From Rhodospirillales bacterium (GTDB lineage: Bacteria; Pseudomonadota; Alphaproteobacteria; Kiloniellales; JACOMY01): DNA of 64,000 nt. Shown piece after piece: positions 2,680 to 17,095 of this stretch. The stretch covers positions 2,336 to 66,335 of the forward strand of contig JACOMY010000015.1 in NCBI GenBank assembly GCA_014324045.1, given 5' to 3'. The notes beneath the pieces were generated by a model. The model was given only the letters and a program-made list of their open reading frames with translations. It searched no databases and was not told where the DNA came from. The translations under genes and the position numbers were made by a program. The first letter of the stretch is position 1. Each line of letters starts with the position of its first letter.

Positions 2680-3798
2680 GTGGAAAAAAACAACGAAGCA
2701 AAGAACGACAAACAGCCAAAAATCTATCGCCGCACGCGGCTTGGCCGGATCGTGCACGGCGATGCACTCGAGGTGATGGCAAAGATGGACGGCGCTTCCG
2801 TCAACCTCATCGTGACCAGCCCGCCCTTCGCGCTTACCCGCAAGAAGGATTACGGCAACGAGCAAGAGGAGGCCTATCTCGAATGGTTCAAGCCCTTCGC
2901 CAAGCAGTTCCATCGTATCCTGAAGGACGACGGGAGCCTGGCGATCGACCTTGGCGGCGCCTGGAAACCCGGACTCCCGGTGCGCAGTCTTTATCACTTC
3001 AAGCTTCTCATCGTACTCTGCGAAGAGTTCGGGTTTCACCTGGCGCAGGAGTTCTATTGGTGGAATCCCTCGAAACTGCCCAGCCCGGCAGAGTGGGTGA
3101 ACATCCGGCGCATCCGGGTGAAAGATGCGATCGACACCGTCTGGTGGCTTGCCAAGTCACCCTGGCCGCGGGCGAACAACCGGCGTGTTCTTCAGCCCTA
3201 CAGCGATAGCATGAAGCATCTTCTGGCAAAGGGGTACAAAGCGATGCTGCGCCCCTCGGGCCACGATATCAGCGAGAAATTCGCCATCGACAATGGGGCA
3301 TCCATCCCGCCCAATCTCATTGCGATCCCGAACACCGAGAGCAACAGCGCCTATCTGCGCTACTGCAAGGCCGGGGGCATCAAGGCACACCCAGCGCGGT
3401 TTCCGGCAGCTTTGCCCGAATACTTCATTCGCATGACGACCGATCCCGGCGACCTGGTGTTCGATCCCTTCGGCGGGAGCTGCGTCACCGGAGAGGTTGC
3501 CGAGCGTCTCGGGCGCAGATGGCTCTGTGCGGAGCTGATCGAGGACTACCTGAGAGGTGCGGTCGGACGCTTCGAGGCGCCGGCGGTGCCGGCAACAGCG
3601 GCCAGGCCCAAGACCAGGTCCAAGAAGGGAGAGGATGACGGCTACTATCGTATCCCGCATCCCGGTCTTCTGTGGAACGGCGGCGATGCGACAGCCTTCG
3701 CCCCCCTCCCGGAAGATGGCGGCTCGAAGCGACCCGCCAAGCACCGCGACAAAGACCGGCCTTCCCGGGATTCTGTTGTAGCCAAGGCTGCAGAATAG
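2680..3798 (+). CDS. Beta-class N4/N6 DNA methyltransferase (N6_N4_Mtase family)
   Basis: Motif IV is IVTSPPF. Motif I is FDPFGGSCVTGEVAERLGRRW, located C-terminal to it (beta-class order). ORF track 372 aa. Confidence 0.85.
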   Translation: MEKNNEAKNDKQPKIYRRTRLGRIVHGDALEVMAKMDGASVNLIVTSPPFALTRKKDYGNEQEEAYLEWFKPFAKQFHRILKDDGSLAIDLGGAWKPGLPVRSLYHFKLLIVLCEEFGFHLAQEFYWWNPSKLPSPAEWVNIRRIRVKDAIDTVWWLAKSPWPRANNRRVLQPYSDSMKHLLAKGYKAMLRPSGHDISEKFAIDNGASIPPNLIAIPNTESNSAYLRYCKAGGIKAHPARFPAALPEYFIRMTTDPGDLVFDPFGGSCVTGEVAERLGRRWLCAELIEDYLRGAVGRFEAPAVPATAARPKTRSKKGEDDGYYRIPHPGLLWNGGDATAFAPLPEDGGSKRPAKHRDKDRPSRDSVVAKAAE

Positions 3799-3826: not shown

Positions 3827-4205
3827 TCCGGGCCGGTTTCAAGCCGTTCCGGATCCTGCCGCCGGCCCCGGTCTGCTCCGCCCTTGCCCTCTACCCGGCC
3901 GGCAAGCAGACGATCCCGGAAGGCGGGAAGCGCCCGGCGGAAAAGCGCATGAGGGAAAGCCCGGAGGAAAGGCCCCCGGAGGAAAAGAAAAATCCCCCCG
4001 CCGATCGAGGCCCGAAGCCATGACAGAGCTACAGTTCAAGGGAAAAGAGTTCGTCTACAACCACCATCTGGCGGTGCCGTTCCGCCCGCTGCTGCCCGAC
4101 GAGCGCAAGGGGATCGGCCCGGTTGCGCTCGACGGCAACCTGATCGTCCAGGGGGATAATCTGCACGCGCTCAAGGCATTGCTGCCCCGCTACGCGGGCA
4201 AGGTG
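3827..4205 (+). repeat. Direct repeat copy B (yciB-tail fragment + 5' end of intact mod)
   Basis: Aligns with 811-1220. It contains the same ATGA stop/start junction at 4020-4023. Confidence 0.8.
3837..4023 (+). pseudogene. Orphan 3' fragment of a yciB-like gene
   Basis: FKPFRILPPAPVCSALALYPAGKQTIPEGGKRPAEK...NPPADRGPKP parallels YciB residues FKLFGIMPLTLVFSALAIYLVRKETIPEGGERPEEK...NPPADRGPKP. No N-terminal part is present. Confidence 0.6.
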
Positions 4206-5879
4206 GACTGTGTTTTCATCGATCCGCCCTACAACACCGGTAACGAAGGCTGGTGCTACAACGACAAGGTCAATGCGCCGATGATCCGCGAATGGCTCGA
4301 AGCCAATCCCATCGGGATCGACGACGGCCTGCGGCACGACAAGTGGTGCGCGATGATGTGGCCGCGGCTCCGGCTATTGCATGATTTGCTGAGCGAAGAC
4401 GGAGTTATCTTCGTAACAATAGATGACTATGAGGTGCACCGTCTGAGATCTCTGCTCGATGAGGTTTTCGGCGGCCAAAACCATGTGGCAACGGTTGTGG
4501 ATCGGCTAAACCCCAAAGGCCGGCACTTGGGAGAGTTTTTCGCAAAGACACACGAATACATCTTAGTTTACGCGAAGAATATCAGCTGGCTTCGACTTAA
4601 TGGCTTAGAAAAGTCAGAGGCGATGGTTTCGGAGTATAACAGAGAGGATGAGGTAGGGCCTTACCGGCCCATAGAGCTTAGAAACAGAAATTCAGCTTTT
4701 AACCCACAAACTAGGCCAAACCTATATTATCCGATCTATGTGAATTCCGAGGACGGCTCGGTCAGTCTCGCAGGGGACGCCGTTTATACCGAGGAAGCCT
4801 TGCCGCTCGATGGCAAGGGCCAACCGACATGCTGGACATGGGGTAAGGAGAAATTCAGGACGCAAAATAAGCTGCTGTTTGCCGAACAAACAAGGGCAGG
4901 CACATGGCGAGTATTCAGAAAAGACTATCTTCACGATGAAGACGGTTCGTCGAACACAACTAAGCCGAAATCTATCTGGTTGGACGATGATTTGAACATG
5001 GATGCGTCACGCTTGACCGTCCGGCAGGTTTTAGGCGAGAATGCTTTCGATTTTCCGAAACCTGTGCCCCTTGTCCAGAGGTGCATAGAGCTTGTTGGCA
5101 ATGAAAATGCTATAATCCTTGATTCTTTCGCCGGTTCGGGCACCACCGCGCACGCCGTCCTGGCAGCCAACAAGCGCGACGGCGGCAACCGGCGCTTTAT
5201 CCTGGTCGAAATGGAGGACTATGCCGACCGGCTGACGGCCGAGCGGGTGCGCCGGGCGATAAAGGGTTACGCCTTCTCGGGCAGGCAGCGCAGGGAGCTG
5301 TTGCGGGAAAAGATCACCTGGTCGGCGCTGCAAAAGGCCGGCAAGCTCATCGAAAGCGTCGAAAAGCTCGAAAACCTGCAGGCCCGCGAATACGACGCCA
5401 TCAAGAAAACCGTCAAGGACGGCGCGTTGATCGTCACCGGCGAAAAGGCCGTCGAGGAACGGGCGGAGGGCCTGGGCGGGCGCTTCACCTATTGCAGGCT
5501 CGGCGACCCGTTGGCGCTGGACAGGGTGCTGCAGGGAACAGGCTTGCCGTCCTATGGCGAGCTCGCTGCTGTGCTCTTCAACATGGCGACCAACGAGGCG
5601 CTCGATCCGGCCAGGGTGCGCGAAGCCGACTTCTATCTCGGCAAGACGGAAGGCCGGCAGGTTTGGTTGCTCTACAAGCCGGATCTGGATTGGCTCAAGT
5701 CGCATGACGCGGCGCTGACGCTGAAGAAGGCCGGGGAGATCGCCGCGGCCGATCCCGGCAGGCGCCATCTGGTGTTCGCGCCTGCCCGCCATGTAAGCCA
5801 GAGGATGCTGGCCGCGAAAAACCTTCCCGTCGAGTTCGTGCCCCTGCCCTTCGCGCTCTACCGCATCGACCGGAGTTGA
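4020..5879 (+). CDS. mod: Type III restriction-modification system methyltransferase (Mod)
   Basis: Motif IV is VFIDPPYNTGNEGW and motif I is ILDSFAGSGTTAHAV, with a variable central region between them. The gene is followed by an overlapping res gene. Confidence 0.9.
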   Translation: MTELQFKGKEFVYNHHLAVPFRPLLPDERKGIGPVALDGNLIVQGDNLHALKALLPRYAGKVDCVFIDPPYNTGNEGWCYNDKVNAPMIREWLEANPIGIDDGLRHDKWCAMMWPRLRLLHDLLSEDGVIFVTIDDYEVHRLRSLLDEVFGGQNHVATVVDRLNPKGRHLGEFFAKTHEYILVYAKNISWLRLNGLEKSEAMVSEYNREDEVGPYRPIELRNRNSAFNPQTRPNLYYPIYVNSEDGSVSLAGDAVYTEEALPLDGKGQPTCWTWGKEKFRTQNKLLFAEQTRAGTWRVFRKDYLHDEDGSSNTTKPKSIWLDDDLNMDASRLTVRQVLGENAFDFPKPVPLVQRCIELVGNENAIILDSFAGSGTTAHAVLAANKRDGGNRRFILVEMEDYADRLTAERVRRAIKGYAFSGRQRRELLREKITWSALQKAGKLIESVEKLENLQAREYDAIKKTVKDGALIVTGEKAVEERAEGLGGRFTYCRLGDPLALDRVLQGTGLPSYGELAAVLFNMATNEALDPARVREADFYLGKTEGRQVWLLYKPDLDWLKSHDAALTLKKAGEIAAADPGRRHLVFAPARHVSQRMLAAKNLPVEFVPLPFALYRIDRS

Positions 5880-8527
5880 CGCCGATGTTTCGCCAGCTCG
5901 ACTATCAGGACCGGGTGCTGACCGCAATCGACCGCTATCTCGACCGGCTGAAGACCGAAAAGCAGGCGGCCGAGGAGGTGGCGGAGCTTGCCGCGGGCAA
6001 GCCGCATCTGAAACTGCCGGTCCCCGACTTCGCACAAGCAACCTGGGCGGCCTTGCAGGCGGCAGGCCAGCTTCCCGCGTCGCGCGCCGCCATCGACTAT
6101 TCCGAACGCCGGGACGGCTGCGGCTATCCGGTCCCCAATATCGTGCTGAAGGTGCCGACCGGCGGCGGCAAGACCTGGCTCGCCGTCTCCGGGATCTCGC
6201 GGATCATGGGGCGCTATCTTGAGCGGAACAGCGGCTTCGTGCTGTGGATCGTGCCGAACGAGGCGATCTATAGCCAGACACTGAAGCAGCTGAAGGACCG
6301 CCAGCACCCTTACCGCCAGGCCCTCGACCGCACCGCCGCCGGGCGCGTGCGGATCATGCAAAAGAGCGACCGGCTCGACGCCCGCGATGTGGAGACCAAC
6401 CTTTGCGTCATGCTGCTGATGCTGCAATCGGCGAACCGGCAAACCCGGGAGACCCTGAAGATGTTCCGGGACCGGGGGGACGTGCAGGGGTTTTTCCCGG
6501 CCGAGGGCGAACAGCAGGCGCACAAGGCAGCGCTCGGCCAGACGCCGAACCTGGAGGCTTACGACGGCATCTTCCCGATGGTGAAGGACTCGCTCGGCAA
6601 CGCCTTGCGGATTATCCGGCCCGTGGTTGTGCTGGACGAAGGGCACCGGGCTATTTCCGATCTGGCCTTCCAGACGCTCTACGGCTTCAACCCCTGCTTT
6701 GTGCTCGAACTGACGGCCACGCCGCAGGACCTGCAAGCGCGCGGCGGCAGCAACCCGCGCAAAGACCGCTCCGCCAATCTGCTGGTAGAGGTGACCGGCC
6801 GCGAACTGGATCGCGAAGGCATGATCAAAATGCCGCTCAACCTCGATCCCAGACAGGGCAGCGACTGGAAGGCCACGCTCGACGCGGCGCTGGAGACCCT
6901 GCGGGCGCTGGAGGCATCGGCCGCGGCGCTGCGGGCCGACAGCGGCCGCTATATCCGCCCGATCATGCTGGTGCAGGTAGAGCGCACCGGCGCCGGGCAG
7001 CGCGACAGCAACCGCATTCACGCCGAAGATGTGAAGGACCGGCTGCTGACCGCCGGTTTCGGCGCCGCCGAGATCGCCATCAAGACGGCCGAACGGAACG
7101 ACCTTGCCCAGCCCGAAAACCAGGACCTGCTGTCGCCCGCCAACCGCGTGCGGGTCATCGTCACCAAGCAGGCGCTGCAGGAAGGCTGGGACTGCCCCTT
7201 CGCCTATGTGCTCTGCGCTCTGGCCGCGAGCAGCGACGCGAAGGCCATGACGCAGCTGGTGGGGCGCATTCTGCGCCAGCCGGGGGCGATGAAAACCGGC
7301 ATCGAGGCTCTGGACGAATGCCATGTTGTCACCCACCGCGCCGATACCGCCAGCGCGGTCGAGGCAATCAAACAGGGCCTGGAACAAGACGGGCTCGGGG
7401 ATTTGGTCTTGCGCCTGCGGCAGGAGGATAGCCAGGGCGCGGCCGGGGCGGCCCGGAAGATCGAGCGCCGCCCGGCATTCGCTTCGGCAAACATCCACCT
7501 GCCGCAAGTCATGCTTGCCGAAGACGGCGAGGTCCGCGAGCTGGACTATGAAACCGACATTCTCTCCGCCATCGACTGGCGCGGCTTCGATCCCGCCGGG
7601 ATCGCAAAGGGCATCCCGGACAACGCGCAAGCCGCCGATAGCCGGCGGCAGCGGATCGGACTGGCCCAGGAAGGAGCAGACAGGGGAGCAGATGCGGGAG
7701 CGGACGAGGAAGCGGCAGCCTTCGTAGCGGAAAGCCTCGACCGGAATGCGGAGGTCTTGCGCTTCGATCCGGTGCAGGCCGTCCTCATGCTGTCCGACCT
7801 TGTGCCCAACCCCTTTGTGGCGCGTGAGATTGTCGGGGCGCTGTTGCAGGCCCTGCGCGCCCGCGGTTTCGGCGAAGACAAGCTCGGCCGCTGTGCCGGC
7901 CTGATCCTGTCCGAACTGCGCCGGGGGCTGGACCGGGCGCAGACCGAACGCGCCGAGGCCCTGTTCAAGGCCGGGGTGGCCGCAGGCCGGATCCAGTTTC
8001 GTTTGCGCCTGGACGGGCGCAACTGGCGCATGCCGGACAGGATGGAAACGGCCGAAGCGGAGGGCGCGCGCCAGCTCTTGAGCAAGACCGGCGGGCCGCT
8101 GGCAAAAAGCCTCTTCGCCCCGGTCTACGAAGCCGGGTTGAACCGGGACGAACGGGAGGTAGCCCTATACCTCGACGCCGAACCAGCCCTGATCTGGTGG
8201 CATCGCAACCTAGCCCGCAGCCAATACGGCATTCAGGGTTGGAAGAAGGGCAAAATCTATCCCGACTTCATCTTCGCCCTGGAGCGCAAGGGGGGCGCCA
8301 AGCGCATCACCATTCTCGAAACCAAGGGGGACCAGCTCGACAATCTCGACAGCGCCTACAAGCGCAAGGTCCTGGACTTGCTTTCCGATCGTTTCGCCTG
8401 GGATAGTTGCATCCCGGCGGGCCAGTTCGAGCTTGTGCAGGACAATGGCGAGAGGGTGGAGGGCACCTTGATCCTGATGAGCGAATGGCGGACAAAACTG
8501 CCGAAGCATCTGCGTGCGGAAGCCTAA
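5876..8527 (+). CDS. res: Type III restriction enzyme, Res subunit (SF2 helicase + PD-(D/E)xK nuclease)
   Basis: Motifs seen: KVPTGGGKTW (Walker A), VVLDEGHRA (DExH), ELTATP, QEGWDCPF, VGRILR, and C-terminal YPDFIF...ILETKGD. A TTG at 5876 overlaps the mod stop; an alternative ATG lies at 5885. Confidence 0.9.
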   Translation: MTPMFRQLDYQDRVLTAIDRYLDRLKTEKQAAEEVAELAAGKPHLKLPVPDFAQATWAALQAAGQLPASRAAIDYSERRDGCGYPVPNIVLKVPTGGGKTWLAVSGISRIMGRYLERNSGFVLWIVPNEAIYSQTLKQLKDRQHPYRQALDRTAAGRVRIMQKSDRLDARDVETNLCVMLLMLQSANRQTRETLKMFRDRGDVQGFFPAEGEQQAHKAALGQTPNLEAYDGIFPMVKDSLGNALRIIRPVVVLDEGHRAISDLAFQTLYGFNPCFVLELTATPQDLQARGGSNPRKDRSANLLVEVTGRELDREGMIKMPLNLDPRQGSDWKATLDAALETLRALEASAAALRADSGRYIRPIMLVQVERTGAGQRDSNRIHAEDVKDRLLTAGFGAAEIAIKTAERNDLAQPENQDLLSPANRVRVIVTKQALQEGWDCPFAYVLCALAASSDAKAMTQLVGRILRQPGAMKTGIEALDECHVVTHRADTASAVEAIKQGLEQDGLGDLVLRLRQEDSQGAAGAARKIERRPAFASANIHLPQVMLAEDGEVRELDYETDILSAIDWRGFDPAGIAKGIPDNAQAADSRRQRIGLAQEGADRGADAGADEEAAAFVAESLDRNAEVLRFDPVQAVLMLSDLVPNPFVAREIVGALLQALRARGFGEDKLGRCAGLILSELRRGLDRAQTERAEALFKAGVAAGRIQFRLRLDGRNWRMPDRMETAEAEGARQLLSKTGGPLAKSLFAPVYEAGLNRDEREVALYLDAEPALIWWHRNLARSQYGIQGWKKGKIYPDFIFALERKGGAKRITILETKGDQLDNLDSAYKRKVLDLLSDRFAWDSCIPAGQFELVQDNGERVEGTLILMSEWRTKLPKHLRAEA

Positions 8528-8651: not shown

Positions 8652-8924
8652 ATGAAACACTGTTTAATAGTAGCCGCCTGTCTCGGCGTGCTGGGTGGAT
8701 GTGATCGTACTCCGCTTAGAATAGCCGATCTGGGACCAAGCCAGGTCGTCGTGGAAGTTTCCGACCATTGGACGGCTCCTAAGGTGTCTCAAGCAGAAAT
8801 AGACCTTAAGGCAGAACAGGGATGTCAAGCTTATGGAAAAACGGCGCGTTTTTTAACAAAAAATGACCCCGACAGCTGGAGCATCCCATTCGGCCAACAT
8901 ATCTACGATTGCATAGATCCATGA
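8652..8924 (+). CDS. Small lipoprotein (hypothetical), paralog 1
   Basis: Signal peptide with lipobox: MKHCLIVAACLGVLGGC. SD aaggag lies upstream. GC is lower than in the neighbours. Confidence 0.6.
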   Translation: MKHCLIVAACLGVLGGCDRTPLRIADLGPSQVVVEVSDHWTAPKVSQAEIDLKAEQGCQAYGKTARFLTKNDPDSWSIPFGQHIYDCIDP

Positions 8925-9220
8925 TGAGCGAAAATCGGGAGAGGATCGTGAAATATCGTCCGATCACGGCAGTCCTTATAGTCTTACTGGGCGGGTGCGT
9001 CAATCCCTATCCTAAAATTATCAAGGTCAACGCTGATCAGGCGATCATTCAGACCCATCCGAGCGTATCGGAGGAGGCTGTCGAACGGAAGGCCGAGGAA
9101 GCCTGCGCGCTTTATGGGAAAAAGCCGCAGTTGGTGTATATTGAACTCACTAGTCTCCTCATACCGGAGCCTTCGGAGAGGAATCACTTCTTCGCCTGCG
9201 TCGAGCAAGCGGCGGAATGA
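8921..9220 (+). CDS. Small lipoprotein (hypothetical), paralog 2
   Basis: Lipobox IVLLGGC. The ATG at 8921 overlaps the TGA of the upstream gene (ATGA). It shares a KAE..C..YGK...H.F.C pattern with paralog 1. Confidence 0.55.
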   Translation: MMSENRERIVKYRPITAVLIVLLGGCVNPYPKIIKVNADQAIIQTHPSVSEEAVERKAEEACALYGKKPQLVYIELTSLLIPEPSERNHFFACVEQAAE

Positions 9221-9711
9221 CAGGCCGACTCTGGGCGGCTGCCGTCCTGGCGGTGCTGGCGCTTTCCGCCGGGCCGGCACAGGCACAATCCGGCGGCAGC
9301 GAAACCATCGAGGGCCCTGCCAGCGTTACCGACGGCGACAGCATCGAGATAGACGGCCGGCGGATCCGCCTGTACGGGATCGATGCGCCCGAGTTCGAAC
9401 AGAGCTGCCGCACCGCCGCGGGCCGTGTCTGGCGCTGCGGGCAGGAGGCTGCGGCGGCACTGGCCGGCAAGATCGGCAGCGCGCCGGTGACTTGCCAAGT
9501 CCGCGGCAACGATGGCCGCGCGGTCGCCGTTTGCCGGCAGGGCGGCGCCGATCTGAACGCCTGGCTGGTGCAGCAAGGGCTGGCACTGGCTTACCGCTAT
9601 TTTTCCACCGACTACCTGCCGGAAGAAGAGAACGCCCGGCGCGCCCGCCGCGGTCTGTGGCAAGGCGCCTTCGTCAAGCCTTGGAACTGGCGGCGGGGCA
9701 AGCGGCTTTAG
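9217..9711 (+). CDS. Secreted thermonuclease (staphylococcal nuclease/SNase family)
   Basis: Signal peptide AVLALSAGPAQAQ. VTDGDSIEIDGRRIRLYGIDAPE and the C-terminal ARRARRGLWQG are typical of the SNc fold. The ATG overlaps the upstream stop (ATGA). Confidence 0.8.
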   Translation: MTGRLWAAAVLAVLALSAGPAQAQSGGSETIEGPASVTDGDSIEIDGRRIRLYGIDAPEFEQSCRTAAGRVWRCGQEAAAALAGKIGSAPVTCQVRGNDGRAVAVCRQGGADLNAWLVQQGLALAYRYFSTDYLPEEENARRARRGLWQGAFVKPWNWRRGKRL

Positions 9712-9752
9712 GCCCGGCCGAACCGGCGGGAGGCAGACGCGGTGCTATCCAC

Positions 9753-11215
9753 CTGCGACTCGACGGAGAGGGTAGTCCATGAGTAACGACGAGCAGGAAG
9801 GATCTGTTGCGATGACCGGCAAGCCCAGCGAACGAAACATTCCGGTGGAGCGTCTTGTCCTCGACCTGGAGAACCCTAGGCATGGGGAATTGGACACGGA
9901 GCAGGAGGCAATCGAATTCCTCTGCTCCAACGAGGATGTGATCCCGCTTGTCCGCGATATTGCGCGATATGGGTTAAACCCGATAGATCGCTTGGCGGTC
10001 GTAATTGACAACGGCGACGATGGGCCGGAGGGTAACTTCGTTGTGGCCGAAGGCAACCGAAGGCTCTGCGCCATTAAACTCCTTACCGGCCCGGCTCTGG
10101 CGCCGAGCCAGCATAGGGATGCTGTCGAAAAAGCCGCCGCGGATTGGACGCCAATCACCGAAATCTCCTGTGTGGTTTTCGACGATAAAACTGCCGCTCG
10201 CCTCTGGCTTGCAAGACGCCACCAAGGATCCTTAGGCGGTGTCGGATTTAAGCCATGGAATGCCGAACAAAAGGCAAGGCACAGCGATGTATCTTCGCGA
10301 AATCGGGTGGCGCAGGCTTTTCTCGACTGGGCGGAGAAGAAAGGGTTGATAACTCCCGAAGACCGGTTGGGACGCCTGACCACAGTTCAGAGATATCTGA
10401 GCAATTCCACGATGCGCCAGGCGATGGGGATCGATGCGAGCGATCCGAACGATGTCCGCCGCACCCGGCCGGGAGGCGACATGAATTTACTGGCGCAGCG
10501 CTTCATCGGCGACCTGTTGAGCGGTGAGGTGACGTCGCGGCATAAAAAAGCCGATATCGAGCGTTATGCCGGGAAACTGGATTCACTTCCGGGACTGTCC
10601 TATAAACGGGTCGATCCACAGCTCTTGGCAAAAAAACCGCGAAATCTTAGAAAGATAAGCAGGCACCCTGAGATTGACCAAAAGCTTCAAGAACTGAACG
10701 ATCAGAAGCTATGCAGTCTCTATAATTCCATCACAACGATTTCGGCTAAGGCACACATGCCTCTTATTGCGGTTGGCGTCTGGGCGTTTTTCGAAACGCT
10801 GACGGCGCTCCTCGGCAGAGATCCGAAGACCAGTTTTTCAAGCTTCTTGAACAAGCAGTATCTGGAAAAACAGGGCCTCGATGCGGGCGACAACAGAGCG
10901 ATGCGCGAGGCAATTGGGCGCATTCATGCTTACGGAAACACGACCAAACATCATTACACATTAGCCGCTTTCAACGCAGAGCAGCTCGAAGACGACATGA
11001 CAACATTGAGCGGTCTAATCGCAAAATTGATCGAACGCGCGCCACGCGATTCATAACTCCGATCCCCATTGGCCGAAGGGATTTTCCGTTGCTATCGAGT
11101 GCTTGAACGGAAAACGTAAAAGGCGGCTGTCGTCCGGCTTCGCCTGCGGAAGATCGGTGGTTACGGTCCCATGGCAGGCATGGAGCGCCAGGCCCCGATA
11201 CTGCGCAGTGCGCCC
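9753..11215 (+). repeat. Tandem duplication unit 1 (ParB-like gene + downstream spacer)
   Basis: Collinear with 11334-12844, from ctgcgactcgacggaga through the ORF to ...catggcaggcatggagcgccaggcc..gatactgcgcag. Confidence 0.8.
9779..11056 (+). CDS. ParB/Srx-fold N-terminal domain protein with uncharacterised C-terminal domain (paralog 1)
   Basis: IPVERLVLDLENPRHG and FVVAEGNRRLCAIKLL match the ParB-like nuclease/NTPase domain signature (GxRR). ORF track 425 aa. Confidence 0.7.
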   Translation: MSNDEQEGSVAMTGKPSERNIPVERLVLDLENPRHGELDTEQEAIEFLCSNEDVIPLVRDIARYGLNPIDRLAVVIDNGDDGPEGNFVVAEGNRRLCAIKLLTGPALAPSQHRDAVEKAAADWTPITEISCVVFDDKTAARLWLARRHQGSLGGVGFKPWNAEQKARHSDVSSRNRVAQAFLDWAEKKGLITPEDRLGRLTTVQRYLSNSTMRQAMGIDASDPNDVRRTRPGGDMNLLAQRFIGDLLSGEVTSRHKKADIERYAGKLDSLPGLSYKRVDPQLLAKKPRNLRKISRHPEIDQKLQELNDQKLCSLYNSITTISAKAHMPLIAVGVWAFFETLTALLGRDPKTSFSSFLNKQYLEKQGLDAGDNRAMREAIGRIHAYGNTTKHHYTLAAFNAEQLEDDMTTLSGLIAKLIERAPRDS

Positions 11216-11300
11216 GGATCTCATCTTCACCGAAGAGTCCCTGTCCTGGCCGTTTGAGGAGGGCGAGGACGGCGTGTGGCGATTGAAGCCGGCAGAGTGA
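11197..11300 (+). pseudogene. 3'-terminal remnant of a pentapeptide-repeat gene
   Basis: Encodes ...SLSWPFEEGEDGVWRLKPAE*, nearly identical to the C-terminus of the 13039..13857 product (GLSWPFEEGEDGVWRLKPTE*). No repeat region is present. Confidence 0.65.
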
Positions 11301-11333
11301 TTAGGGGTCCTGCCGCAGGCGGCAGTGTCCCGG

Positions 11334-12844
11334 CTGCGACTCGACGGAGATGGTTAGTCTATGAGTAACAACGAGAAGGAAGGATCTGTTGCGATGACCG
11401 ACAAGCCCAGCGAACGAAACATTCCGGTAGAGCGTCTTTTCCTCGACCTAGAAAACCCTAGGCATGGGGAATTGAGGACAGAGGAAGAAGCAATCGAATT
11501 CCTCTGCTCCAACGAGGATGTGGCCAAGATTGCCGGCGATATTGCGGAGCATGGGCTAAGCCCGATAGATCGCTTGGCGGTCGTAATTGACAACGGCGAC
11601 GATGGGCTGGAGGGTAACTTCGTTGTGGCCGAAGGCAACCGAAGGCTCTGCGCCATTAAACTCCTTACCGACCCGGATCTGGCGCCGAGCGAGCATAGGG
11701 GTGCTGTCGAAAAGGCCGCCGCGGACTGGACGCCAATTGCCGAAATCTCCTGTGTGGTTTTCGACGATAAAACTGCCGCTCGCCTCTGGCTTGAAAGACG
11801 CCACCAAGGATCCTTAGGCGGTGTTGGATTGAGGCCATGGAATGCCGAACAAAAGGCAAGGCACAGCAGTGGATCTTCGCGAAATCGGGTGGCGCAGGCT
11901 TTTCTCGACTGGACGGAGAAAGAAGGGCTGATAACTCGCAAAGACCGCAAACGCCGTCTGACCACGGTCCAGAGATATCTGGGCAATCCCATCATGCGCC
12001 AGGCGATGGGGATTGATGCGAGCGATCCGAACGATGTCCGCCGCACCCGGCCGGAGGCTGACATGAAGTTACTGGCGCAGCGCTTCATCGGCGACCTGCT
12101 GAGCGGTGAGGTGACGTCGCGACATAACAAATCCGAAATCGAATCTTATGCTCGGATGCTGGAATCGCTCCAGGGATTATCCGGTGAAGAGGTTGATCCG
12201 CCGCTATCCTTGAACCCCCCTTCCGCTTCCCAGGACCCATCGGACCCGCCAGGAAAACCGAAAAAGCCCGAAAGATCTACAAAGATAAAGCGGGACCCCA
12301 AGATTGACGAAAAGCTTCAAGAACTGAACGATCAGAAGCTAAGCAGTCTCTATAATTCCATCACAACGGTTCCGGTTAATAAACACACACCCCTTGTTGC
12401 AATTGGCGTTTGGGCCTTCTTCGAAACGCTGACGGCGCGCCTCGGCAGAGATCCGAAGACCAGTTTTTCGAGCTTCTTAAGCAAGCAATACCTGGAAAAA
12501 CAGGGCCTCGATGCGAAGGAAATCGAAGGCTTGGACGAGCCAATTGGGCGCATTCATGCTTACGGAAACACGACCGAACATCATCACACAGTAGCCGCCT
12601 TCAATGCAGAGCAGCTCGAAAACGACATGGCGGCGTTGAGCGGTCCGATCGCAAAGTTGATCGAACGCGCGCCACGCGATCCATAACTTCGATTGCCGCC
12701 GGCCGAAGCGGTTTACCTTTGCTATCGAGTGCTTGAACGGAAAACACAAAAGGCGGCTGTCGTCCGGTTTCGCCTGCGGAAGATCGGTGGTCACGGTCCC
12801 ATGGCAGGCATGGAGCGCCAGGCCGATACTGCGCAGCGCGCCCC
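11334..12844 (+). repeat. Tandem duplication unit 2 (ParB-like gene + downstream spacer)
   Basis: See unit 1. In this copy the spacer continues into an intact pentapeptide-repeat gene. Confidence 0.8.
11361..12686 (+). CDS. ParB/Srx-fold N-terminal domain protein (paralog 2)
   Basis: Same motifs as paralog 1 (LENPRHG, AEGNRRLCAIKLL). It differs mainly by a Pro-rich insert (PPLSLNPPSASQDPSDPPGKPKKPERS) in the linker. 441 aa. Confidence 0.7.
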   Translation: MSNNEKEGSVAMTDKPSERNIPVERLFLDLENPRHGELRTEEEAIEFLCSNEDVAKIAGDIAEHGLSPIDRLAVVIDNGDDGLEGNFVVAEGNRRLCAIKLLTDPDLAPSEHRGAVEKAAADWTPIAEISCVVFDDKTAARLWLERRHQGSLGGVGLRPWNAEQKARHSSGSSRNRVAQAFLDWTEKEGLITRKDRKRRLTTVQRYLGNPIMRQAMGIDASDPNDVRRTRPEADMKLLAQRFIGDLLSGEVTSRHNKSEIESYARMLESLQGLSGEEVDPPLSLNPPSASQDPSDPPGKPKKPERSTKIKRDPKIDEKLQELNDQKLSSLYNSITTVPVNKHTPLVAIGVWAFFETLTARLGRDPKTSFSSFLSKQYLEKQGLDAKEIEGLDEPIGRIHAYGNTTEHHHTVAAFNAEQLENDMAALSGPIAKLIERAPRDP

Positions 12845-12941
12845 GGAGTTCCTTATGCCGATGCAGGATCGGAGGGGCTCCCGGTTCGGTCTGGCGGTGT
12901 ATCCATGCCATGGCTATGGCGCTGTCCGTAAAGCGGGTCGA

Positions 12942-12957
12942 GCGGACCATGGTCCGC
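12942..12957. repeat. Perfect 16-bp palindrome GCGGACCATGGTCCGC (copy 1)
   Basis: Read directly from the sequence; self-complementary. Confidence 0.9.
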
Positions 12958-13038
12958 TGCCTGCCAGGCTGTCAGGTTCGGGCCGCAGAATGCGGCGATG
13001 GTTGGAGCTTAATCGATAAGGCGGAAGGATGAGACGCT

Positions 13039-13857
13039 ATGAGAGCAATGACGTGGATGGCCGCTGCCTTGGCGGCGGCGCTGGCGGGGCCGGGCTCGGC
13101 GGCCGCACAGGAGACCTGGCGGGGCGCGGATCTCTCCTCCACGGACTTCTCCGACGCGATCCTCCGCGGCGTCGATCTCGCCTACGCGAACCTCGAAGGC
13201 GTGAACCTCGAAGGCGCGAACCTCGAAGGCGCGAACCTCGAAGGCACGTACCTCTCCGGCGCGGACCTTTCCATCGCTGACCTCGCCGGCGTGCAACTCC
13301 GCGGCGCGCACCTCGCTGACGCGGACCTCTCCGGCACGGACCTCTCCGGCGCGGATCTCGTTGTCGCGAACCTCGCTGACGCGGACCTCACCGGCGCGAA
13401 CCTCTCCGCCGCGGACCTTACTGTCGCGCACCTCTCCTCCGCGGATCTCACCGGCGCGGACCTCACCGGCGCGGACCTCACCGGCGCGTACTTCTACTCC
13501 GCGGACCTCGCTGACGCGGACCTCATCGACGCGAACCTCACCGGCGCGGATCTCATCGACGCGAACCTCTTCGCCGCGGACCTCGAAGGCGCGGACTTCT
13601 CCTCCGCGAACCTCTCCTCCGCGGACCTCGCTGACGCGATCTTCATCATCGCGAACTTCATCGACGCGAACCTCATCGACGCAAACCTCGAAGGCGCATA
13701 CCTTGAAGACGCGCGCCTCTACGGCGCGACCGGCCTGACGCAGGAGATGCTGCGCAGTGCCCGACCCTCGCCCCCGCCCTCCAGTCTGCCGGAGGGCTTG
13801 TCCTGGCCGTTCGAGGAAGGCGAAGACGGCGTGTGGCGATTGAAGCCGACGGAGTGA
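13039..13857 (+). CDS. Pentapeptide-repeat protein with N-terminal signal peptide
   Basis: MRAMTWMAAALAAALAGPGSAAAQ is followed by ~40 A(D/N)LxG-type pentapeptides. C-terminal ATGLTQEMLRSA...LSWPFEEGEDGVWRL. Confidence 0.85.
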   Translation: MRAMTWMAAALAAALAGPGSAAAQETWRGADLSSTDFSDAILRGVDLAYANLEGVNLEGANLEGANLEGTYLSGADLSIADLAGVQLRGAHLADADLSGTDLSGADLVVANLADADLTGANLSAADLTVAHLSSADLTGADLTGADLTGAYFYSADLADADLIDANLTGADLIDANLFAADLEGADFSSANLSSADLADAIFIIANFIDANLIDANLEGAYLEDARLYGATGLTQEMLRSARPSPPPSSLPEGLSWPFEEGEDGVWRLKPTE

Positions 13858-13868
13858 TCGCTTGCGGA

Positions 13869-13884
13869 GCCGACCATGGTCCGC
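13869..13884. repeat. Palindrome copy 2 (GCCGACCATGGTCCGC, one mismatch)
   Basis: Read directly. It lies 12 nt after the PRP stop. Confidence 0.8.
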
Positions 13885-13963
13885 TGCGTGCCGGGCGGTC
13901 TGGTTCGAGCCGGAGAAGGCCATGGTCGTCGAGGCGTAGCAGCGAGACAAGGATGGAGAAGGC

Positions 13964-14069
13964 TATGAAACATCATCTGATCGTGGTAATGATAGTGGCG
14001 GCGCGCGGCGGGAAGGTCTTCGTCGAAAGTGCCGACAAAACCGAAAAGACCGAGCTGGTAGTCCTGTGA
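13964..14069 (+). CDS. Small ORF (34 aa), possibly a degenerate lipoprotein-signal remnant
   Basis: MKHHLIVVMIVAARGGK... is preceded by the same leader and SD (ggagaaggctATG) as the lipoprotein at 8652. Its stop overlaps the GTG of the next ORF (GTGA). Confidence 0.25.
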
Positions 14070-14671
14070 GGCAGGCAATCGCCACAGTATTGCTGCAGGC
14101 ACTCGAAAGCGGTGCTTTTTGCCATGCCACACTGTTCCGGGGTATTGATCAGGACGGGCTTCGGGACATCGAAGAGCACTGGAAGCCGATGTTCGATGCC
14201 GCCGCTCCCGAGAACCGGCCTGAGGACGCGCACTGGGAATGGGCCGACAAGGTGTTGCGCGCTCAGACCAAGCCGCTTAACTGCGAGATCTTCGGGATTG
14301 AGGCAGACAACAAAACGCAGGGCATGATGCTTGTCATCAAGCTTGGCCGACAGTGCTTTAGCCGTCATCAGGAACATCCAGGCGCGCCGCTGGTCTACAT
14401 TGACTTTCTTGCGACAGCTCCATGGAATAGGCCGAGCATGGGTGACGCTCCAGCCTACAAGGGCGTCGGTGTGACCCTGTTTATGTAAGCAGTATCCCTG
14501 AGCTATGAGAAAGAAGCTTCAGGGCGTGTCGGCCTGCATTCACTGCCCGGTGCAGAGTCATTCTACCGCGAGCAGATGAACATGACCGATATGGGTAAAG
14601 ATGTGGGCTATGACAATTTGCGATACTTCGAGTTGTCCGCAACTCAGGCCAAGCAGCTGATCTCGTCCTAG
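14066..14671 (+). pseudogene. GNAT-like acetyltransferase gene interrupted by an in-frame TAA (14486-14488)
   Basis: The upstream part ends ...VYIDFLATAPWNR...YKGVGVTLFM*. The same frame continues AVSLSYEKEASGRVGLHSLPGAESFYREQMNMTDMG...* to TAG 14669-14671. Together they give a GNAT-like core (G.G..L...A..S, FY...M). Confidence 0.6.
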
Positions 14672-14703: not shown

Positions 14704-15471
14704 ATGACCATGAAACTTTGCGTCGACGATAACTGGTTGCGCCGGAAGATCGCGAACGACCCGCTCGTCGAAGTCGAAGCCGGACGCAGCATCCGCTGTG
14801 CTGCTGACGTGGTGAAGGCTATCGAAGCGGCCGCACTCCATTCAGAATCTGCTCCAGGAAAACCGGTGCATACGGTCCCGCAGTGGGAGGAGCTGATTTT
14901 TAAGAAATTTGGCGAGCGTGTTCGCGGCGTTCACACTGGCCTGTTCGACGGCGCGGACCTCGCCGACGCAGACCTCGCCCGCGCGTTCCTCGTCGGCGCG
15001 AACCTCTCCGGCGCGGACCTCTCCGGCGCGAGCCTCGCCGACGCGATCCTCGCCCGCGCGTTCCTCGTCAACGCGGACCTCTCCGGCGCGAACCTCTCCG
15101 GCGCGAGCCTCACCGGCGCGAACCTCTCCGGCGCGAACCTCACCCGCGCGAGCCTCACCGGCGCGAACCTCAACGGCGCGAACCTCACCGACGCGCTTCT
15201 CTTCGATGCGGACCTCACCGGCATGGACTTCCCCGGCGCGAACCTCACCGGCGCAACCGGCCTGACGCAGGAGATGCTGCGCAGCGCCTGGCCATCACCT
15301 CGGCCGAAGAATCTGCCGACGCAGTTGTCCTGGCCGTTTGAGCATGGTGCGGACGACAAGTGGCGCCTGAGGCTCCAACGGCCGCAGACGGCACAGGCGG
15401 AAGTGCCTCAAGACCCCCGAGAGGGCTGGGCGGAGCCGGATAACCTTCTGGCTCTTCCTCGCTGCCGGTGA
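14704..15471 (+). CDS. Pentapeptide-repeat protein, no signal peptide, ~80-aa unique N-terminal domain
   Basis: ADLADADLARAFLVGANLSGADLSGASL... repeats. C-terminal ATGLTQEMLRSAWPSPRPKNLPTQLSWPFEHGADDKWRL is homologous to that of PRP 13039..13857. Confidence 0.8.
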   Translation: MTMKLCVDDNWLRRKIANDPLVEVEAGRSIRCAADVVKAIEAAALHSESAPGKPVHTVPQWEELIFKKFGERVRGVHTGLFDGADLADADLARAFLVGANLSGADLSGASLADAILARAFLVNADLSGANLSGASLTGANLSGANLTRASLTGANLNGANLTDALLFDADLTGMDFPGANLTGATGLTQEMLRSAWPSPRPKNLPTQLSWPFEHGADDKWRLRLQRPQTAQAEVPQDPREGWAEPDNLLALPRCR

Positions 15472-15759: not shown

Positions 15760-15775
15760 GCGGACCCTGGTCCGC
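15760..15775. repeat. Palindrome copy 3 (GCGGACCCTGGTCCGC)
   Basis: Read directly. The flanks (ggccttgggaa...ctggaggggg) resemble those of copy 4. Confidence 0.8.
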
Positions 15776-16060: not shown

Positions 16061-16468
16061 GTGGGAGGTCGGGCTGTGAGCGGCAAAAACATTAGACAAT
16101 GGTTGATGACCCTGGCAACAATCGTGGCCTTGCTCATGACCTATTTTGAATTGCAGCGCACAGCCGATCAAATTGAGGGTGCCACATTATACCAGATAGC
16201 AAACGATGCTAGAAAGTTGACTCGAAGTTATTATGGACGAGAAAAAGCGGATCGGTGGGATGTTTTGAGTCATTTTCATTCGGTTTACTTGCTTAGTCAA
16301 CAGGATGTTATTGATGAGGCATCGTGGGTACTTTTTTGCCGGAGCCTCAAGATCTTTATCGAAAGACCTGACATTTCTTTCAACTTAGACAAGCATTCAA
16401 GCTTATACGATTCTGGCTTTGTGTCTCTGGTAGATAAGATGGAGAAGGGAGAGGTGAAATGCACATGA
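16061..16468 (+). CDS. Hypothetical membrane protein (low-GC gene)
   Basis: ORF track 135 aa with one TM segment (WLMTLATIVALLMTYF). The start is uncertain (GTG 16061/16076 or an internal ATG). No recognisable family. Confidence 0.4.
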   Translation: MGGRAVSGKNIRQWLMTLATIVALLMTYFELQRTADQIEGATLYQIANDARKLTRSYYGREKADRWDVLSHFHSVYLLSQQDVIDEASWVLFCRSLKIFIERPDISFNLDKHSSLYDSGFVSLVDKMEKGEVKCT

Positions 16469-17022
16469 AAACGTTAGCAGTTTTTCTAGTGGCAGTATTG
16501 CCGCAACACGCGCTCGCACAAGGGGCGTATTTTCCTCCGAAGGAGGAAGAGGCCGTAAAGGAACAGCCACCGGAAAAGGAACAGCCACCGGAAGGCAAAG
16601 AGTCTTTGGTCGGCCCAATCGTGGAGTGTGACAACGAAGCTGTGAGCAGACGCGTGACGCAAAACTTTAGCCAATTCGCCCGGGCGCGATGCCCGGGCGG
16701 AGGGTGTTTTCTGCGCTCGGGGGACTGCAATAAGCGAACGACAAATTTGGCTTATGAAGCGCCAAGTGGATACGAAATAGAAAGTTACGAGTTTATTCAG
16801 GAAGGCAACAACCACGGAACAAGCGGAGACCTTCAGGCCGCCAGAACTGCCGGGCGTATAGTGCGGATTTGGATCAGGCTGGAATGCGATCCGCCAGATT
16901 ATCCTGGTGCGCCTGGAGGATGGAACGAGGGTCGGCTCGTGGGGACAATCCGATATGTCGATATCGATAAACTGAAGGCTGAATCAATTGCTGAGTGCCG
17001 TTCAGCAATCATTGGGCAATGA
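16465..17022 (+). CDS. Hypothetical secreted Cys-containing protein (low-GC gene)
   Basis: MKTLAVFLVAVLPQHALAQG is a signal peptide. The ATG at 16465 overlaps the upstream TGA (ATGA). Contains an EQPPEKEQPPEGKE repeat. Confidence 0.5.
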   Translation: MKTLAVFLVAVLPQHALAQGAYFPPKEEEAVKEQPPEKEQPPEGKESLVGPIVECDNEAVSRRVTQNFSQFARARCPGGGCFLRSGDCNKRTTNLAYEAPSGYEIESYEFIQEGNNHGTSGDLQAARTAGRIVRIWIRLECDPPDYPGAPGGWNEGRLVGTIRYVDIDKLKAESIAECRSAIIGQ

Positions 17023-17079: not shown

Positions 17080-17095
17080 GCGGACCATGGTCCGC
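17080..17095. repeat. Perfect palindrome GCGGACCATGGTCCGC (copy 4)
   Basis: Read directly. It is preceded by the hairpin cggggtgttgctgcaccccg. Confidence 0.9.

Follow-up and report, generated by a model that had tools for sequence, protein, structure and literature searches.

The window analysed here is a 64,000-nt stretch of DNA from a metagenome-assembled genome (MAG) of a sponge-associated Rhodospirillales bacterium, and the locus in question is chromosomal. It carries two adjacent ParB-like genes, called A1 and A2 below, followed by a gene for a pentapeptide-repeat protein (PRP1). Judged by their sequence, the two ParB-like genes both encode subunit A of the anti-phage system PD-lambda-5 and arose as tandem copies that have since diverged. 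The protein family is a known one; the architecture is atypical in being duplicated and in lacking the DNA methyltransferase (methylase), subunit B, that is otherwise encoded next to A. PRP1 sits at the place where the methylase was replaced, and PRPs are not a conserved partner of A. From the substitution pattern between the two copies we lean towards the view that A1 and A2 are orphaned but still functional effector or sensor genes of PD-lambda-5.

Identity and fold of the ParB-like proteins

A1 (9779–11056, 425 aa), A2 (11361–12686, 441 aa) and PRP1 (13039–13857, 272 aa) lie on the forward strand, as do the leader, the relics, the flanking repeat and the second PRP gene described below. The first-pass annotation of this DNA had placed the three reading frames at the same coordinates. 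It had also described the ParB-like protein as uncharacterised, which does not hold, since both proteins match the PADLOC profile for PD-Lambda-5_A (PDLC04000) over their full length. The E-values are 3.6e-148 for A1 and 3.3e-156 for A2, and the alignment spans profile positions 4–424 of 428. Most other PD-Lambda-5_A profiles cover only the N-terminal ~200–350 residues of A1 and A2; PDLC04006 covers the C-terminal region as well. Neither Pfam, even at E 10, nor NCBIfam gave a match to A1 or A2, and a profile search of PDB sequences with the ParB-like protein gave none. A1 is identical to P0002, a Rhodospirillales MAG protein.

PD-lambda-5 came out of a functional selection in E. coli (Vassallo et al. 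2022, Nat Microbiol; PMC9519451); it consists of two genes carried by a prophage of strain ECOR7 and acts against phages. Its published composition is 'ParB/HEPN, methyltransferase' (supplement to Vassallo 2022; PMC9519451). According to the HHpred results given there, subunit A matches ParBc with a probability of 96.4% and the HEPN-type domain DUF4145 with one of 35.6%, and subunit B matches MethyltransfD12 with one of 99.9% (PMC9519451). Cloning of the system required a delta-mrr host, and the authors' term for it is a compact prophage RM+Abi system, i.e. restriction–modification (RM) plus abortive infection (Abi) (PMC9519451). Later papers on PD-lambda-5 only restate the idea of a 'dual RM/Abi' system.

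The AlphaFold model of A2 (AF2) has a pLDDT of 77. In a Foldseek search of the PDB it matched CTP- and CDP-bound ParB and Noc (7bnk, 7bm8, 7nfu) with a probability of 1.0 and E-values of 2e-4 to 5e-4. The structural alignments cover ~265–275 columns with a sequence identity of only 12–16%. Sulfiredoxin (Srx) came next, with a probability of 0.93–0.96. The ParB/Srx fold proposed earlier for the N-terminal half is thereby borne out. In the model, a nucleotide-binding domain of the ParB/Srx type comes first in this half and a helical region after it, the order also seen in the CTP-gated DNA clamps ParB and Noc.

All 70 invariant columns of a 16-sequence family alignment are kept in A1 and A2. The motifs LENPRHG, AEGNRRLCAIKLL and RIHAYGNTT(K/E)HH, to which the first-pass annotation had drawn attention, are present and fall on invariant or near-invariant columns of the family. 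The box-I-like NPRH, the box-II-like EGNRR and the motif R-x4-GN-x-T-x-H are conserved across the family and retained in both window copies. From general knowledge of ParB proteins we take NPRH and EGNRR to be nucleotide-binding boxes I and II.

A helical bundle was modelled with confidence for the C-terminal 136 residues (pLDDT 88, pTM 0.84). The best PDB match of this part in Foldseek was weak, the DUF86/HEPN protein YutE (1ylm; probability 0.66, E 0.6), and TT1696 (1ufb) was found at rank 7. There was no match in BFVD, and a Pfam scan of all 16 family members gave none for this domain. The C-terminal motif R-x4-GN-x3-H corresponds to R-x9-H, and the canonical HEPN spacing is R-x4-6-H. A HEPN label for the C-terminal domain is plausible: the HEPN-like C terminus that had been suggested, as a speculation, for these proteins agrees with the published 'ParB/HEPN' label, while our own structural matches lend it little weight.

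The conserved partner of subunit A

The search for homologues of A gave 787 matches, all of them unnamed. Gene neighbourhoods were compared in 93 loci, namely 80 loci from different genomes (L009–L088) and 13 viral contigs from IMG/VR. A D12 (Dam-type) methyltransferase is encoded on the same strand, within ~100 nt downstream of A, in 77 of the 80 genome loci; two of the three exceptions reach the contig end and the third is a partial match. It is also found downstream of A in 12 of the 13 viral contigs, and the exception reaches the contig end. The A–B pair is linked in all 89 loci where this could be checked. The same methylase follows A in the cultured Paracoccus phage Pkon1 and in the five closest relatives of A (L001–L005), which come from sponge metagenomes and share 67–68% identity with it. 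The downstream gene matches PD-Lambda-5_B with E-values of 1e-117 to 1e-119. The D12 methyltransferase PD-Lambda-5_B is the invariant partner of A, and clustering of all neighbouring open reading frames (ORFs) brought out no third conserved partner.

No PRP gene was found near A, within 4–6 kb, in any of the 93 loci. The first-pass annotation had proposed that the ParB-like gene and the PRP gene form a functional pair, to be given up if homologues never occur together with PRP genes. The pairing fails because no PRP accompanies A in the 93 homologous loci, and the gene found there instead is the D12 methylase.

The only other recurrent neighbour is an IS1595-family transposase, present in 17 of the 80 genome loci (L015 and L022 among them) just after A–B and mostly on the opposite strand. 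Other copies of the A–B pair lie in prophages: in L001/L002, in the Paracoccus phage Pkon1 and in the 13 IMG/VR contigs. Evidently the A–B module is mobile.

Some further features of these loci were noted. Over the same sets of loci B is more conserved (60–70% identity to the L001 copy) than A (45–52% to window copy 2), as expected if A is a fast-evolving sensor or effector. L001–L005 carry a second D12 methyltransferase, divergent and upstream of A. It is not of the PD-Lambda-5_B type, its best PADLOC match being MTase_II (PDLC03253). In L001 a gene with a weak GmrSD_C domain lies nearby.

Loss of the methylase and duplication of the locus

In the 64-kb window no D12 methyltransferase was found by tblastn with four B-type or D12 methylases, and PADLOC gave no PD-Lambda-5_B match among the neighbouring window proteins. 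Homology to L001 and L003 continues past the stop codon of A and through a spacer of ~70 nt, and it ends between an RBS-like AAAGG (RBS, ribosome-binding site) and the position of the methylase ATG. This breakpoint is identical in both window copies. The relic of the A–B spacer in copy 1 (11070–11127) is 72–78% identical to the A–B spacers of L001 and L003–L005. In copy 2 the spacer relic, which includes the former methylase promoter, lies at 12687–12757, where homology to the canonical loci ends. In copy 1 the sequence that stands in for the methylase gene (11128–11215) has no homology to canonical loci and is common to both copies, with 92% identity to 12758–12843. The methylase was replaced before the duplication, because both copies have the same breakpoint just before the methylase start codon.

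The tandem DNA repeat extends from ~27 nt before each ATG (9752 and 11335) to ~160 nt beyond each stop codon (~11215 and ~12843), with a nucleotide divergence of 13% between the copies. Its left edge is the copy-1 leader with the RBS (9752–9778), which is 92% identical to 11334–11359. The A1 and A2 proteins are 77% identical and differ by one 16-codon indel, located in a linker. On the 3' side of copy 1, a stretch of 67 nt (11235–11301) is what is left of the 3' end of a PRP gene, i.e. the last ~21 codons and the stop codon. It is 88–92% identical to 13792–13858 and still encodes the PRP tail (tblastn, 90% over 21 aa). The repeat and the relic together confirm the duplication history, including the PRP remnant after copy 1, that had been read from this DNA earlier. 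The same arrangement recurs in three independent sponge-metagenome assemblies (L006, L007 and L008). We considered an assembly artefact; agreement of the three assemblies and the 13% divergence of the copies rule it out.

The sequence shows the following order of events. The locus started as a canonical A–B module, in which the methylase gene was replaced, from just before its start codon, by unrelated DNA bearing a PRP gene. The unit consisting of A, the former methylase promoter and the PRP gene was then duplicated in tandem, and most of the first PRP copy was lost by deletion afterwards. Scans of metagenome contigs gave no close relatives or intermediate states of the locus.

A–B spacers across many genera (L009–L088) carry TGGCCG-N17-TGnTA, which resembles a promoter with a −35 element and an extended −10 element. 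Conservation of this element suggests that the methylase may be transcribed independently of A. In copy 1 of the window the −35 element TGGCCG is at 11070–11075, the extended −10 element TGCTATCGA at 11090–11098 and the RBS-like AAAGG at 11119–11123. In copy 2 they are at 12700–12705 (CGGCCG, with a T-to-C change), 12720–12728 (TGCTATCGA) and 12749–12753 (AAAGG), respectively. The retained promoter-like element faces A2 in copy 1 and PRP1 in copy 2.

Pentapeptide-repeat proteins

PRP1 occupies the position of the methylase, and it starts 352 nt after the stop codon of A, compared with ~77 nt for the methylase in L001. It belongs to the Pfam family Pentapeptide (PF00805, 4.4e-61). The replacement sequence on its 5' side (12758–13038) holds the palindrome GCGGACCATGGTCCGC (12942–12957) and a repeat (12940–12993) that recurs directly in the 3' flank of PRP1 (13867–13920) with 85% identity, the palindrome included with one mismatch.

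The N terminus of PRP1 is signal-peptide-like, with R2, a hydrophobic core at residues 7–16 and AAA|Q at 21–23. A crude hydropathy and AXA check recognised in the sequence MRAMTWMAAALAAALAGPGSAAA|QE the n-, h- and c-regions expected of a Sec signal peptide. The signal peptide that the first-pass annotation had entered as a caveat is in agreement with these features, and PRP1 is probably exported. The A proteins and the second PRP paralogue of the window (PRP2; 14704–15471, 255 aa) have no signal-peptide-like N terminus; PRP2 has an 80-aa non-repeat domain there instead. The two PRPs share a C-terminal tail, GATGLTQEMLRSA.PSP.P..LP..LSWPFE.G.D..WRL (13723–13854 in PRP1), which was not found in the rest of the window or in the fetched homologous loci.

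A DNA mimic of the Qnr or MfpA type was considered for PRP1 and judged very unlikely. PRP1 scores 64.9 bits against the NCBIfam Qnr model (cut-off 240) and 54.6 bits against MfpA (cut-off 360), and its N terminus resembles a signal peptide. PRP2 is likewise far under both cut-offs. The homology search with PRP1 gave thousands of generic, repeat-driven matches and no specific orthologue group, so neighbourhoods could not be compared starting from the PRP. The role that suits PRP1 best is that of a bystander, another of the exported accessory proteins of the island, and not that of a cytosolic antidote.

Selection on A1 and A2

The ratio dN/dS between A1 and A2 is 0.53, and that of the canonical pair L001/L003 is 0.49. 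Between the copies dN is lower than dS (Fisher p = 3e-4), and the probability that both reading frames would be free of stop codons by chance under random substitution is ~0.005. Of 49 columns with a conservation of at least 90% in 66 methylase-linked members, each window copy deviates at 3, and the range for canonical members is 0–11. Both copies keep the RBS leader. The divergence between A1 and A2 arose without an adjacent methylase, because the copies share the breakpoint. Substitution data of this kind indicate that A1 and A2 have probably been under purifying selection since the methylase was lost, and so they probably still work.

It is important to note that dS between the copies is low (0.22) and uneven, being 0.07 at codons 60–180 and 0.3–0.5 at codons 180–360. 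The coding DNA of the A copies is less similar (87.1% identity) than the non-coding spacer on its 3' side (90.4%). Such a pattern points to gene conversion across the ParB core or to mosaic recombination.

Judged by folds, motifs and gene linkage, the canonical system most likely works as follows. B, a Dam-family D12 N6-adenine methyltransferase, would mark host DNA. A would sense unmarked invader DNA through its ParB-like nucleotide-gated module and then fire the C-terminal effector, which may be a nickase, or an RNase that brings about abortive infection. If A1 and A2 are active in this bacterium, self-protection could depend on a methylase gene at another site in the genome or in a resident prophage, or else A could be harmless until a phage cue arrives.

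Alternative explanations

Several points weigh against A1 and A2 being functional. An effector that is linked to a methylase in every other checkable locus should be toxic to its own cell when alone. Among the best 120 of 7,997 B homologues none has the locus-tag prefix of this MAG, a result that cannot exclude a methylase acting in trans; a tetranucleotide and GC comparison, made to see whether the prophage contig L001 shares the host of the window, was not discriminating. With dS as low and patchy as it is, gene conversion or recent orphaning could account for part of the apparent constraint. Support for HEPN is weak in the original paper (DUF4145 at 35.6%) as well as here (PDB E-value 0.6), and the mechanism of PD-lambda-5 is published no further than 'compact RM+Abi'. 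The former methylase promoter now faces the PRP gene, as would also be expected had the PRP taken over a role. Some of these points would fit a decaying remnant, in which the A genes became silent or inactive after the loss of the methylase and their frames are still open owing to recency and gene conversion. A lone A is then expected to be useless or toxic, given its linkage to B elsewhere, and there is other decay in the island: the PRP relic at 11235–11301 and an interrupted GNAT-like ORF at 14066–14660. The T-to-C change in the −35 element of the copy-2 promoter relic also speaks for a remnant. We regard a remnant as doubtful, though it has to be taken seriously. Against it, dN is significantly under dS, both frames staying open by chance would be rare, and dN/dS equals that of methylase-linked orthologues. 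Moreover, no motif residue has been lost, conserved columns deviate no more often than in canonical members, and the RBS leader is present in both copies. We therefore prefer to see A1 and A2 as orphaned, working genes.

A different role for the PRP was also considered. Some PRPs, such as Qnr and MfpA, are DNA mimics. PRP1 might have taken the place of the methyltransferase as a DNA-mimic antidote that restrains the ParB/HEPN-like effector and is expressed from the former methylase promoter. Its gene has the exact place of the methylase gene, with the retained promoter-like element upstream of it; the A–PRP unit was duplicated as a block; and selection has maintained the A genes in the absence of a methylase. 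We nevertheless find this very improbable, and the DNA-mimic partner that the first-pass annotation had envisaged is not upheld. PRP genes accompany none of the 93 homologous A genes, PRP1 is probably exported, and its scores (65 bits against 240 for Qnr, 55 against 360 for MfpA) are far from those of the mimics. Its nearest database relatives are generic repeat-driven matches, and the 352-nt gap after A is much wider than the ~77 nt that separate A from the methylase in L001. A1 has remained intact although the first PRP copy was deleted, and a PRP for every A copy is thus not required. A broader proposal, of which we think only slightly better, is that of a PD-lambda-5 derivative which goes on defending the cell without a methylase. 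In it either the PRP would provide self-protection by DNA mimicry, or A would be a stand-alone sensor-effector whose two copies have diverged in specificity; this too is improbable. Finally, A1 and A2 could be ParB proteins of a housekeeping or plasmid type, acting in DNA partition or nucleoid organisation, as the resemblance of their fold to the N-terminal and DNA-binding domains of CTP-binding ParB and Noc might suggest. We give this practically no credence: identity to ParB and Noc is 12–16%, there is no Pfam ParBc match even at E 10, and the neighbours are a staphylococcal nuclease (SNase), a PRP and small exported proteins, with no ParA-type gene among them. The family is a validated defence component, and it travels with a methylase in prophages and beside insertion sequence (IS) elements. 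The reading we favour is that of orphaned but functional PD-lambda-5 subunit A genes.

Implications

Linkage of A and B in 89 checkable loci, a conserved promoter-like element in their spacer, and at least one lineage that keeps two intact, apparently selected A genes without a methylase are additions to what is known of PD-lambda-5. Activity of the orphan A genes would mean that the methylase is more than an antidote to a restriction-like toxin, and the model of the system would have to change. If the orphan genes are protected in trans, there are defence effectors that rely on a methylase encoded elsewhere, for example in a prophage. Should the locus be a methylase-free derivative in either of its forms, the methyltransferase would be dispensable for control of the effector. 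There are also consequences for annotation. Rule-based tools that demand both A and B miss loci of this kind, and the neighbour of a defence gene, here a PRP gene, is not necessarily its partner.

Genomic context

The A genes belong to a defence and accessory island of ~16 kb (~1.3–17.8 kb) with a GC content lower than that of the surrounding DNA. It is flanked by ordinary chromosomal genes, including those for GcvP, GcvT, NAD-GDH, AspRS and AcrB. According to PADLOC and Pfam the forward strand of the island encodes an Mrr_cat nuclease (1288–2667), an N6_N4 methyltransferase (2680–3798), and the mod (4020–5879) and res (5876–8527) genes of a Type III R-M system. The defence context ascribed to the A genes in the first-pass annotation is therefore real. 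The nuclease is a 459-aa protein with a C-terminal Mrr_cat domain, encoded directly upstream of the N6_N4 methyltransferase, and the two are probably a Type II R-M pair. An Mrr-type nuclease here shares an island with methylase-less A genes; cloning of PD-lambda-5 had required a delta-mrr E. coli.

A cluster of genes for exported proteins (8652–9711 and 16459–17022) lies beside the defence genes. Among its members are two small paralogous lipoprotein-like ORFs, with the lipoboxes LGGC and LLGGC, a homologue of staphylococcal nuclease that has a signal peptide (9217–9711), and a 187-aa signal-peptide protein to which no family was assigned. The ORF at 14066–14488 (140 aa) has no Pfam, PADLOC or NCBIfam match. 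Reading through its stop codon (region 14066–14660) gives a GNAT-acetyltransferase-like C-terminal motif (..GAESFYREQMNMTD..), and the region is probably an interrupted pseudogene.

The 16-nt palindrome GCGGACCATGGTCCGC occurs, with at most one mismatch, at four window sites (12942–12957, 13869–13884, 15760–15775 and 17080–17095). All are intergenic and within the island, and 0.08 sites are expected by chance. It is also found twice (3353–3368 and 7916–7931) in L001, a prophage contig from the same metagenome with a complete PD-lambda-5. Only a core of ~20 nt is conserved around the sites. The palindrome may serve as an operator or mark a cassette boundary, or it may be a REP-like element. Integron cassettes were considered, as small genes on the same strand are separated by the palindrome, and set aside: it has no attC core sites, there is no tRNA gene, and no integrase was seen among the ORFs scanned, with no systematic search aimed at integrases. 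No tRNA gene and no Rfam match was found in the window, and a scan for promoter and terminator consensus sequences at 8.4–17.4 kb stayed at background level.

Comparison with known systems

By their Pfam assignment PRP1 and PRP2 are repeat proteins of the right-handed-quadrilateral-helix type, like Qnr and MfpA. They differ from these in scoring far below the family cut-offs, in the lineage-specific C-terminal tail that both carry and, for PRP1, in the signal-peptide-like N terminus.

The N-terminal half of A superimposes on the ParB and Noc clamps (7bnk, 7bm8, 7nfu) and on sulfiredoxin, and has box-I- and box-II-like motifs. Unlike ParB and Noc, A has no Pfam ParBc match and no ParA or parS context, it carries an additional C-terminal effector-like domain, and its role is in defence and not in segregation.

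Fusions of ParB with a HEPN domain of the Swt1-like clade (Saro_3948 type) were catalogued computationally in 2013 (Anantharaman et al.; PMC3710099). Compared by description and not by sequence, they share with the window proteins a ParB-like domain combined with a domain labelled HEPN, and contexts resembling R-M systems. The two groups also resemble each other in taxonomic range, with Sphingomonadales and further Alphaproteobacteria dominant among the A homologues. They differ in that evidence for a HEPN fold is weak in the window protein.

The closest known system is PD-lambda-5 itself. A1 and A2 match its subunit A over the full length, with a ParB-like N terminus followed by a HEPN-labelled C terminus, and close relatives of A1 and A2 are found in prophages together with the B methylase. 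The window proteins belong to a subfamily of ~430 aa, whereas HHpred matches of the E. coli prototype extend to residue 498, and the window locus is chromosomal, whereas the prototype is prophage-borne. In contrast to PD-lambda-5, the window has neither PD-Lambda-5_B nor another D12 methyltransferase, A is duplicated in tandem, and a PRP gene occupies the methylase slot.

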